Made by a program: the position numbers and the translations under genes. Positions 12,819 to 13,868 of a stretch of DNA of 64,000 nucleotides are shown here, one piece after another (positions within the stretch are counted from its first letter, which is position 1; every line of letters begins with the position of its first letter). This DNA comes from Escherichia phage VB-EcoM-WM. The notes beneath the pieces are model-generated. The model worked only from the letters and a program-made list of their open reading frames with translations. It was not told where the DNA came from and did not search any database. Location of the stretch: sequence record PQ014731.1; one strand, written 5' to 3'.

Positions 12819-13868
12819 TTAAGCTTCTTCGACAATTCCTGCGCCCAGGATTTTTTCATTGAGCTCTTTTGCTGTTTTAATAATATTGTCCACCAGACGC
12901 TTACGGGTCTTATCTTTCACCTGAACTTCTTCGCCGCCGTTCAGGGTGGTTTTCAATTGGGACAAAATGTCCTGAAGCTCTACCACAGAGAATCGCTGCA
13001 GATCTTCAGAGGTAATCTCACCCAGTGCAATCTTAACGGTCTCACCACTCTCCATCTGCAGATTCAGGAACACAGTGTGAACATCACCTTTCATACCATT
13101 TGCTTTTGCAGACTCAACAGCATGAACCAGCTCGTCCAGAGATGTGCATTGGTGAATCTCTGGCAAACCTGCTTCACCTAGCACACCTTCTTCATCACTT
13201 TTTGCCAAAAGCTTTTTCGGTTTCTGTCCATTCTGAATGCGCTGAATGTTTTCATCGTCCAGAATGATAGCACCAGTTCGAGATGCCAGCTCTTCTCCAT
13301 CCAACCACACTTCGCCACCAGCTGTGATGGATGCGATCTCATCTTCTGTCAGAACCCCACCATAGTATTTTTCAATCAGGCGTTCAAAACGTTTCTTCCA
13401 GTAGTTAACCTGGGTATTCATGTTCACACCGTTGCCATAGGTGCCACCTTGATAGTAGTGGAACATAAACTCTGTGTCCGGAGCCACAGTCCGTTCTTTG
13501 CAACCCAGCCATAAGATTGTTCCTGCTGAGCAGCACATCCCCTCGGCGTGTACGACAACGCTTGCCTGAGACTCTCGGAATGCCTGCAAATACGCCATAG
13601 CAATGTGAACGCAACCACCAGGGCTGTTAATGATTACACGGATACTTTCTTCTGGCTGTGCCATACGAATTGTTTGCAAACGGGACATATGATCCTGCAA
13701 ATCTTCAAGATCGTCAATATAAAGAACGTGGTCAACAACAGGTGTTGGGTAGCTGTATGTTTCCATAATACCACCCGGCATACCAAACATTTTGTTACTC
13801 ATAGGTTCGAAACCGTTCTGTTTTTCTTTCATGCCGTGTACCATGGTGCTGCGAGGTGTTAAATTCAT
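12819..13868 (-). CDS. ClpP-like serine protease with C-terminal extension
   Basis: INSPGG and GMCCSAG motifs resembling ClpP/S14 active-site regions; 349 aa, longer than ClpP. Confidence 0.55.
   Translation of the reverse strand: MNLTPRSTMVHGMKEKQNGFEPMSNKMFGMPGGIMETYSYPTPVVDHVLYIDDLEDLQDHMSRLQTIRMAQPEESIRVIINSPGGCVHIAMAYLQAFRESQASVVVHAEGMCCSAGTILWLGCKERTVAPDTEFMFHYYQGGTYGNGVNMNTQVNYWKKRFERLIEKYYGGVLTEDEIASITAGGEVWLDGEELASRTGAIILDDENIQRIQNGQKPKKLLAKSDEEGVLGEAGLPEIHQCTSLDELVHAVESAKANGMKGDVHTVFLNLQMESGETVKIALGEITSEDLQRFSVVELQDILSQLKTTLNGGEEVQVKDKTRKRLVDNIIKTAKELNEKILGAGIVEEA

Follow-up and report, generated by a model that had tools for sequence, protein, structure and literature searches.

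An rV5-like Escherichia phage encodes, among its replication and nucleotide metabolism genes, a ClpP-fold serine peptidase that is probably not its prohead protease

What does a tailed phage do with a ClpP-like protease whose gene lies far from the capsid module? The window analyzed here, a stretch of 64,000 nucleotides from Escherichia phage VB-EcoM-WM (sequence record PQ014731.1), carries such a gene on the minus strand (positions 12819 to 13868; 349 amino acids plus the stop codon). The first-pass annotation, made from the sequence alone, described a ClpP-like protease extended at its C terminus by a long segment and suggested that it may be a relocated prohead protease or a protease targeting host proteins. 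The reading that we favor, and consider reasonably likely as a whole, is that of a non-structural, catalytically competent ClpP-fold serine peptidase that is distinct from the capsid maturation protease and operates independently of an unfoldase. That the protein is a non-structural accessory protease and not the prohead protease we regard as well supported; on independence from an unfoldase, taken by itself, opinion can be divided about equally.

The gene itself is an established one. The window belongs to a Vequintavirus of the rV5/FV3 type, and the rV5 ortholog, gp122, was listed as a "ClpP (ATP-dependent) protease subunit" of 349 amino acids (PMC3606486, Table S3); because gp122 is its ortholog, the gene has been known since 2013, and it is a member of PHROG 5410. 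At the DNA level it is 92 to 97% identical to 118 phage records, nearly all of them Escherichia Vequintavirus (FV3, DrSchubert, and ECP26, for example), and rV5 gp122 and its orthologs in FV3 and DrSchubert are the same gene, with a product of 349 amino acids and 95 to 99% protein identity. The rV5 gene stands in the same place, after PhoH and gp121, with the same promoter (P121) and terminator (t122), and no substantive difference separates the two; the published annotation was made by homology only. The open reading frame is genuine and subject to purifying selection, with a signal far beyond chance: relative to DrSchubert (95% nucleotide identity), there are 46 synonymous and 5 nonsynonymous differences, a nonsynonymous-to-synonymous ratio (pN/pS) of 0.03 that drops to 0.009 in the protease domain, and a Shine-Dalgarno sequence (AAGGA; 13879 to 13875, minus strand) is positioned 7 nucleotides 5' of the ATG.

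The product is, on profile matches and a predicted structure, a ClpP-fold protein of the MEROPS S14 type (clan SK). Pfam CLP_protease (PF00574) matches residues 59 to 168 at 50 bits (cutoff, 20.2 bits; E = 4.2e-13), as it does all 24 of the relatives sampled; PHROG 5410, "ATP-dependent protease," matches over the full length (E = 4.5e-155); and a phmmer search of PDB sequences gave 84 matches, exclusively to ClpPs, the best with an E value of 7e-8. An AlphaFold2 (AF2) monomer model, built from a 15-sequence family alignment, is confident for core residues 45 to 215 (predicted local distance difference test [pLDDT] score mostly above 85), and its top 50 Foldseek matches in the PDB are all ClpP (E of about 2e-10; template modeling [TM] score relative to the target, 0.64 to 0.76). 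These matches bear out the ClpP/S14-like motifs to which the first-pass annotation had drawn attention, namely, INSPGG from residue 80 and GMCCSAG from residue 110; the hidden Markov model annotation that it had named as a check matched the S14-type family, with the head maturation model remaining under its cutoff. The protease domain, with the same high pLDDT scores, comprises residues 45 to 216 (13221 to 13736, minus strand) and includes the handle helix at residues 150 to 169. It is preceded by an N-terminal region (residues 1 to 44; 13737 to 13868, minus strand) that is predicted to be disordered and is unrelated to the gating loops and helix A of ClpP, although N25, G29, Y40, and P41 are invariant in the family. 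E. coli ClpP is synthesized as a precursor of 207 amino acids. The phage protein exceeds E. coli ClpP (193 amino acids when mature) by 142 to 156 residues, in agreement with the excess of about 150 that had been estimated at first pass.

The active site appears to be intact. In HMMER alignments to solved ClpPs, which set the register of the Ser, His, and acid residues, Ser114 (codon TCA, 13527 to 13529, minus strand; in GMCCSAG) aligns with ClpP Ser97, His137 (CAC, 13458 to 13460, minus strand; in FMFHYYQGG) aligns with ClpP His122, and Glu186 (GAA, 13311 to 13313, minus strand; in GGEVWL) occupies the position of ClpP Asp171. When 1.84 billion cluster representatives were searched exhaustively with a profile, 7,929 relatives were recovered with an E value of ≤1e-3 and 1,793 with an E value of ≤1e-10. 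Among the 148 best-scoring relatives that were no more than 50% identical to each other, the Ser and His residues are conserved in 148/148, alongside the oxyanion-loop glycines, and the acid position is held by Asp in 106, Glu in 30, Gln in 8, and Thr in 3 (Asp or Glu in 136/148). The 15-sequence family alignment likewise has invariant Ser114, His137, and SPGG glycines, and there the Vequintavirus clade has Glu at position 186, where the clade of PVP-SE1, Seunavirus, and Erwinia phages has Gln. Conservation of the triad, the point on which the first-pass annotation had staked its reading, is therefore upheld for Ser114 and His137, with Glu186 as a conservative variant; judged from these alignments, the Ser-His-acid triad is the hallmark of the family, and this phage carries the conservative Asp-to-Glu form of it. 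Invariance of Ser and His, and of the oxyanion-loop glycines with them, makes it likely that catalysis has been retained, and the gp122 ortholog is probably a working, catalytically competent protease.

The proposal of a relocated prohead protease was rejected on the presence of a separate head protease, the genomic context of the family in six lineages, the composition of the virion, and the state of the major capsid protein (MCP). An XkdF-type protease gene (49717 to 50151, plus strand; Pfam Peptidase_S78_2, 64.6 bits with a cutoff of 24) lies directly after the portal gene (48108 to 49664, plus strand) and is followed by a gene for a 325-amino-acid protein, a gene for a 129-amino-acid ortholog of the rV5 head decoration protein gp61 (PMC3606486), and the MCP gene (Phage_cap_E). 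Its product shares 40% identity with ICP1 ORF125, "capsid protease," and carries the annotation "prohead protease" in curated Vequintavirus genomes, ICP1 gp125 being the predicted procapsid protease of the late capsid cluster gp122-126 (PMC7567579); it is likely to be the true prohead protease. Mass spectrometry of rV5 virions identified 19 proteins, of which gp122 is not one, and the MCP peptides spanned residues 5 to about 331 of the 335 (PMC3606486); the MCP is therefore untrimmed, and the substrates of the capsid protease are presumably scaffold or internal proteins. The MCP gene of the window, of the Phage_cap_E type (51587 to 52594, plus strand), has a counterpart whose product appears to be unprocessed in rV5 virions. 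As a separate observation, PHROG 1530 and several GenBank records (HMD-6, W22, and anhysbys among them) label the product of 49717 to 50151 "DNA methyltransferase"; this looks like a propagated misannotation because the ICP1 and BASEL annotations give capsid or prohead protease.

The surroundings of the gene in this and other phages are metabolic. It shares a minus-strand block with PhoH, the anaerobic and aerobic ribonucleotide reductases (NrdDG and NrdAB), and ThyA, and the large terminase (TerL), portal, protease, and MCP genes are at 46 to 53 kb on the plus strand, with the tail sheath gene also in the plus-strand half; the distance from the capsid module remarked upon at first pass amounts to about 35 kb from the head genes and a change of strand. 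Homologs are present in 671 phage records. In the T4-like phage nt-1 the gene sits between frd and uvsX, near gp32, gp59, gp41, and NrdD; in the Pakpunavirus PaoP5 it is near genes for dCMP deaminase and DNA ligase; in ICP1 it is gp211, in the order PhoH-x-x-gp211 and near NrdB and ligase; in the T5-like phage KPN4 it adjoins a dNMP kinase gene; and in SSE121 and PBES02 the order is PhoH, the Clp gene, and a DNA methyltransferase gene. In all of these inspected lineages the homolog is found among replication or nucleotide metabolism genes and never in the head module, and the homologs of the four lineages other than the last two speak, with the evidence from rV5, against relocation of a prohead protease. 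T4-like and T5-like phages have dedicated prohead proteases of their own. Given that background and the non-structural context of the homologs, the ClpP-like gene would encode an additional, non-structural protease. The short-form members of PHROG 1827 (such as PaoP5_045, KPN4_106, and nt-1 ORF271) and ICP1 gp211 resemble the gp122 ortholog in their homologous protease domain (28 to 36% identity), non-structural context, and polar "pocket," but most short-form relatives do not have the C-terminal module, and in ICP1 gp211 the acid position is occupied by Asp and the long tail has no detectable similarity to that of the gp122 ortholog. The gp211 tail was accordingly discarded as a homolog of the tail studied here, BLASTP similarity being confined to the protease domain.

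Expression before the late phase is suggested by the transcription unit and by one homolog. A near-consensus sigma-70 promoter is predicted upstream (TTGACA-17-TATTAT, 11 of 12 positions; 14299 to 14271, minus strand), and directly after the protease stop codon there is a terminator-like hairpin, GCCCTC-TTCG-GAGGGC followed by TTTTAT (12804 to 12783, minus strand). The hexamers are identical to those of the predicted rV5 promoter P121, and the hairpin is identical to the predicted rV5 terminator t122 (-14.9 kcal/mol) (PMC3606486, Table S4). Promoter and terminator, both predictions, bracket a two-gene unit, gp121-gp122, in which the gp121 ortholog (103 amino acids, PHROG 5456; 13929 to 14240, minus strand), upstream of the protease gene, is probably cotranscribed with it; a host-type promoter would fit pre-late expression of the pair. 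In ICP1, genes gp176 to gp211, the last being the ClpP-like gene, form a nucleotide metabolism group whose expression peaks at 12 min, in mid-infection (PMC7567579).

Does the protease depend on an ATPase, as its label implies? In E. coli ClpP the pocket that receives IGF/IGL loops and acyldepsipeptides (ADEP) is formed by V44, L48, F49, E51, A52, and F82 of one protomer and R22, L23, V28, F30, Y60, Y62, I90, M92, L114, and L189 of the next (bioRxiv 10.1101/2023.03.01.530711). We compared these positions through a domain-only alignment with E. coli ClpP and a HMMER alignment, across the 15 family sequences. Y60 is replaced by R77, F82 by E99, I90 by H107, and M92 by E109, each in 15/15 sequences, and L48 by an invariant Q65; Y62 corresponds to a variable I/V79 and L114 to a variable A/S129, and V28 and F30 are kept as V48 and Y50. 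The 148 relatives of the wider family likewise have polar residues at the pocket-equivalent positions. R77, E99, H107, E109, and Q65, together with R68, make up an invariant polar or charged cluster (window positions about 13540 to 13680, minus strand) at the site of the ClpP docking pocket, where the tail of the protein itself, a partner, or a metal may bind. Helix B is 5 residues shorter than in ClpP, an unrelated 44-residue segment with the motif YSYPTP (YSYPxP in the family) stands in place of helix A and the N-terminal gating loops, and the handle helix is retained in the monomer model. NCBIfam equivalog models for ClpP score 33 to 41 bits against cutoffs of 228 to 309, with TIGR00493 (33.4 versus 308.6 bits) and PRK00277 (38.1 versus 249 bits) both under the cutoff. 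The rV5 annotation lists no unfoldase of the ClpX/ClpA type but only a MoxR-type AAA+ protein encoded elsewhere in the genome. Relative to cellular ClpP (E. coli ClpP; MEROPS S14, PF00574), then, the phage protein shares the alpha/beta fold, triad register, SPGG oxyanion loop, and handle helix but is only about 20% identical, has Glu where ClpP has Asp, and combines the absence of gating loops, helix A, and a hydrophobic pocket with a C-terminal linker and module of about 130 amino acids. These comparisons suggest that the gp122 ortholog is probably not a canonical ClpP that docks on host ClpX or ClpA.

The C-terminal extension has two parts. The linker (residues 217 to 261; 13086 to 13220, minus strand) is variable, modeled with low confidence, and contains a Vequintavirus-specific insertion (helix 244 to 256); in the comparison with DrSchubert it is the least constrained part of the protein (pN/pS, 0.17). 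The C-terminal module (residues 262 to 349; 12822 to 13085, minus strand) is conserved, with no nonsynonymous and 8 synonymous differences from DrSchubert and with F293, E297, and R322 invariant in the family alignment. An AF2 model of the tail alone is confident (pLDDT, 82.5; predicted TM score [pTM], 0.70) and has the topology beta-hairpin, short helix, helix, 12-residue loop, and long helix. Searches with the module returned no significant fold match, only a weak Rho_N/SAP-like (HeH) signal, and among BFVD structures there was no scaffold or head protease match to the tail. Distant relatives with similar tails have the pattern F-x-x-x-E-L-x-x-I-A-x-x-L-G-I...K-x-x-L-I, and tails of at least 90 amino acids are found in 40 of the 148 relatives, whose median length is 231 amino acids.

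We suggest that the protease is made in the early-to-middle phase of infection together with the replication and nucleotide metabolism genes and that it may assemble into ClpP-like rings, as the retention of the handle helix in the model would imply. Proteolysis would proceed without the host IGF/IGL-loop unfoldases ClpX and ClpA, in which case the "ATP-dependent" label is probably wrong. In ClpP the C terminus comes out on the apical face, next to the docking pocket. For that reason, a crown of seven C-terminal modules would sit at the axial entrance of the ring, where they may act in cis as a device for recognition of substrates or partners. The substrates may be host or phage proteins that are degraded or processed in mid-infection; the targeting of host proteins, the other suggestion of the first-pass annotation, is possible. 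A link to defense or antidefense was discarded, since PADLOC gave nothing. A bolder extension, to which we attach little credence, is that PHROGs 5410 and 1827 constitute a distinct and widespread class of phage auxiliary self-compartmentalizing proteases that lack AAA+ unfoldases and recruit substrates through the polar cluster and the C-terminal crown; an HeH-like crown may then bind nucleic acid or a partner and may recruit, for example, DNA-bound or defense proteins at the replication stage, and the cotranscribed gp121 could be an adaptor or a regulator.

Several considerations weigh against the reading of a non-structural, unfoldase-independent peptidase. The loss of the IGF pocket is deduced from an alignment and a monomer model rather than from a complex. 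The timing comes from a promoter prediction and from an ICP1 homolog that is 36% identical, and there from a range of genes rather than from gp211 itself; moreover, the ICP1 gp176-gp211 group peaks once late genes have already started (PMC7567579), such that overlap with head assembly is possible. Absence from the virion is compatible with a transient role of gp122 in the prohead. PHROG and NCBIfam profiles put the protease domain nearer to the ClpP-like head maturation proteases of phages than to cellular ClpP. Literature searches on phage-encoded ClpP homologs found annotation-level mentions and no experimental work on any member.

The profile relationships are one argument for a relocated or second head morphogenesis protease with a scaffold-like tail, which would enter proheads, process scaffold or internal proteins, and then leave. 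After PHROGs 5410 and 1827, the nearest outside profiles are the head maturation PHROGs 1684, 94, and 2976, and NCBIfam NF045542 (Clp_rel_HeadMat) scores 62.8 bits, but the cutoff of that model is 120 bits. A protease followed by a helical tail is the layout of lambda C/Nu3-type proteins, and the peak of the ICP1 group, reached when late genes have begun, would also suit such a role. The head maturation proteases of NF045542 and PHROGs 94, 1684, and 2976 do share the protease core with the gp122 ortholog, but the latter never adjoins portal or MCP genes and its tail is unlike scaffold tails, with no scaffold or head protease match in BFVD. With a dedicated XkdF-type protease in the canonical portal-protease-scaffold-MCP position, a family that keeps out of the head module in six lineages, T4-like and T5-like phages included, no gp122 detected in rV5 virions, and an untrimmed MCP, we consider a morphogenetic role quite improbable.

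A bona fide substitute for ClpP, in which a phage ring would pair with host ClpX/ClpA or with the phage MoxR-type AAA+ protein and would be retargeted, ATP dependently, by the C-terminal module, draws on the fold, the triad, the retained handle helix, the pocket residues kept as V48 and Y50, and a name used in more than 100 GenBank records; phage replication proteins, lambda O among them, are moreover known targets of host ClpXP (cited in PMC6102473). We nevertheless judge it unlikely: five key pocket residues are now invariantly polar or charged, the gating loops and helix A are gone, a score of 33 bits against 308.6 is far under the NCBIfam equivalog cutoff, and the rV5 annotation includes no Clp-type unfoldase. 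It is very improbable, in our view, that the protein is instead a decoy or regulator whose catalysis is dispensable and which sequesters a host factor (for example, ClpX/ClpA adaptors or DNA-bound proteins, via the tail) or poisons host ClpP rings through coassembly. The Gln at the acid position in the sister clade (PVP-SE1, Seunavirus, and Erwinia), the unexplained invariant polar surface cluster, and the weak Rho_N/SAP-like signal of the tail would all be accommodated by such a role, but Ser and His are conserved in 148/148 relatives with the oxyanion-loop glycines, and mixed rings with host ClpP are unlikely because identity is only about 20%.

The neighborhood of the gene offers further observations. 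The PhoH gene (14344 to 15132, minus strand; Pfam PhoH, 160.9 bits) opens a block running through the ClpP-like protease gene to a DNA methyltransferase gene (12234 to 15132, minus strand) that is common to three genera of the Vequintavirinae, and ICP1 also has a PhoH-x-x-ClpP-like arrangement. The genes directly upstream of the protease homolog in SSE121 (L006:2999-3490) and PBES02 (L007:2977-3453), members of PHROG 7224, end, as does gp121, in a 20-amino-acid motif, D-x-V-[IL]-V-D-x-[DE]-T-x-Y-x-[IV]-D-W, which is a candidate for a conserved partner-binding motif. The idea that gp121 is a partner conserved throughout was discarded, since only this C-terminal motif is common to it and the upstream genes of Seunavirus and Certrevirus. 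Coding switches from the minus to the plus strand at about 39900 to 40400, and the sign of the GC skew is reversed near 40 kb, marking a divergent junction between the replication/metabolism and structural transcription units. The large terminase gene is split between open reading frames at 46192 to 46941 and 47268 to 48005 (plus strand), each of which matches TerL PHROGs; for rV5, the terminase gene is reported to consist of three segments, with a homing endonuclease carried in an intron (PMC3606486). About 20 unannotated "Campylobacter phage" records (MG065635, MG065644, MG065677, and MG065689, among others) are 96 to 100% identical to E. coli rV5-like phages in the genes examined, and their assignment to a Campylobacter host looks doubtful.

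Within this window we are dealing with an ordinary gene that was annotated before, and the analysis corrects a propagated annotation: the product is most likely not the capsid protease, it is probably not a client of ClpX or ClpA, and the term "ATP-dependent" is unsupported. The label "ATP-dependent Clp protease" is uniform, yet the features that make ClpP dependent on an ATPase are missing from this protein. The family is spread over Vequintavirinae, Pakpunavirus, ICP1, and T4-like and T5-like relatives, including hundreds of phages that are therapeutic candidates, and the invariant polar cluster and conserved tail leave a small chance that it represents a distinct class of unfoldase-independent proteases. 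The targets of a phage-encoded ClpP-fold protease in mid-infection now present a tractable question.

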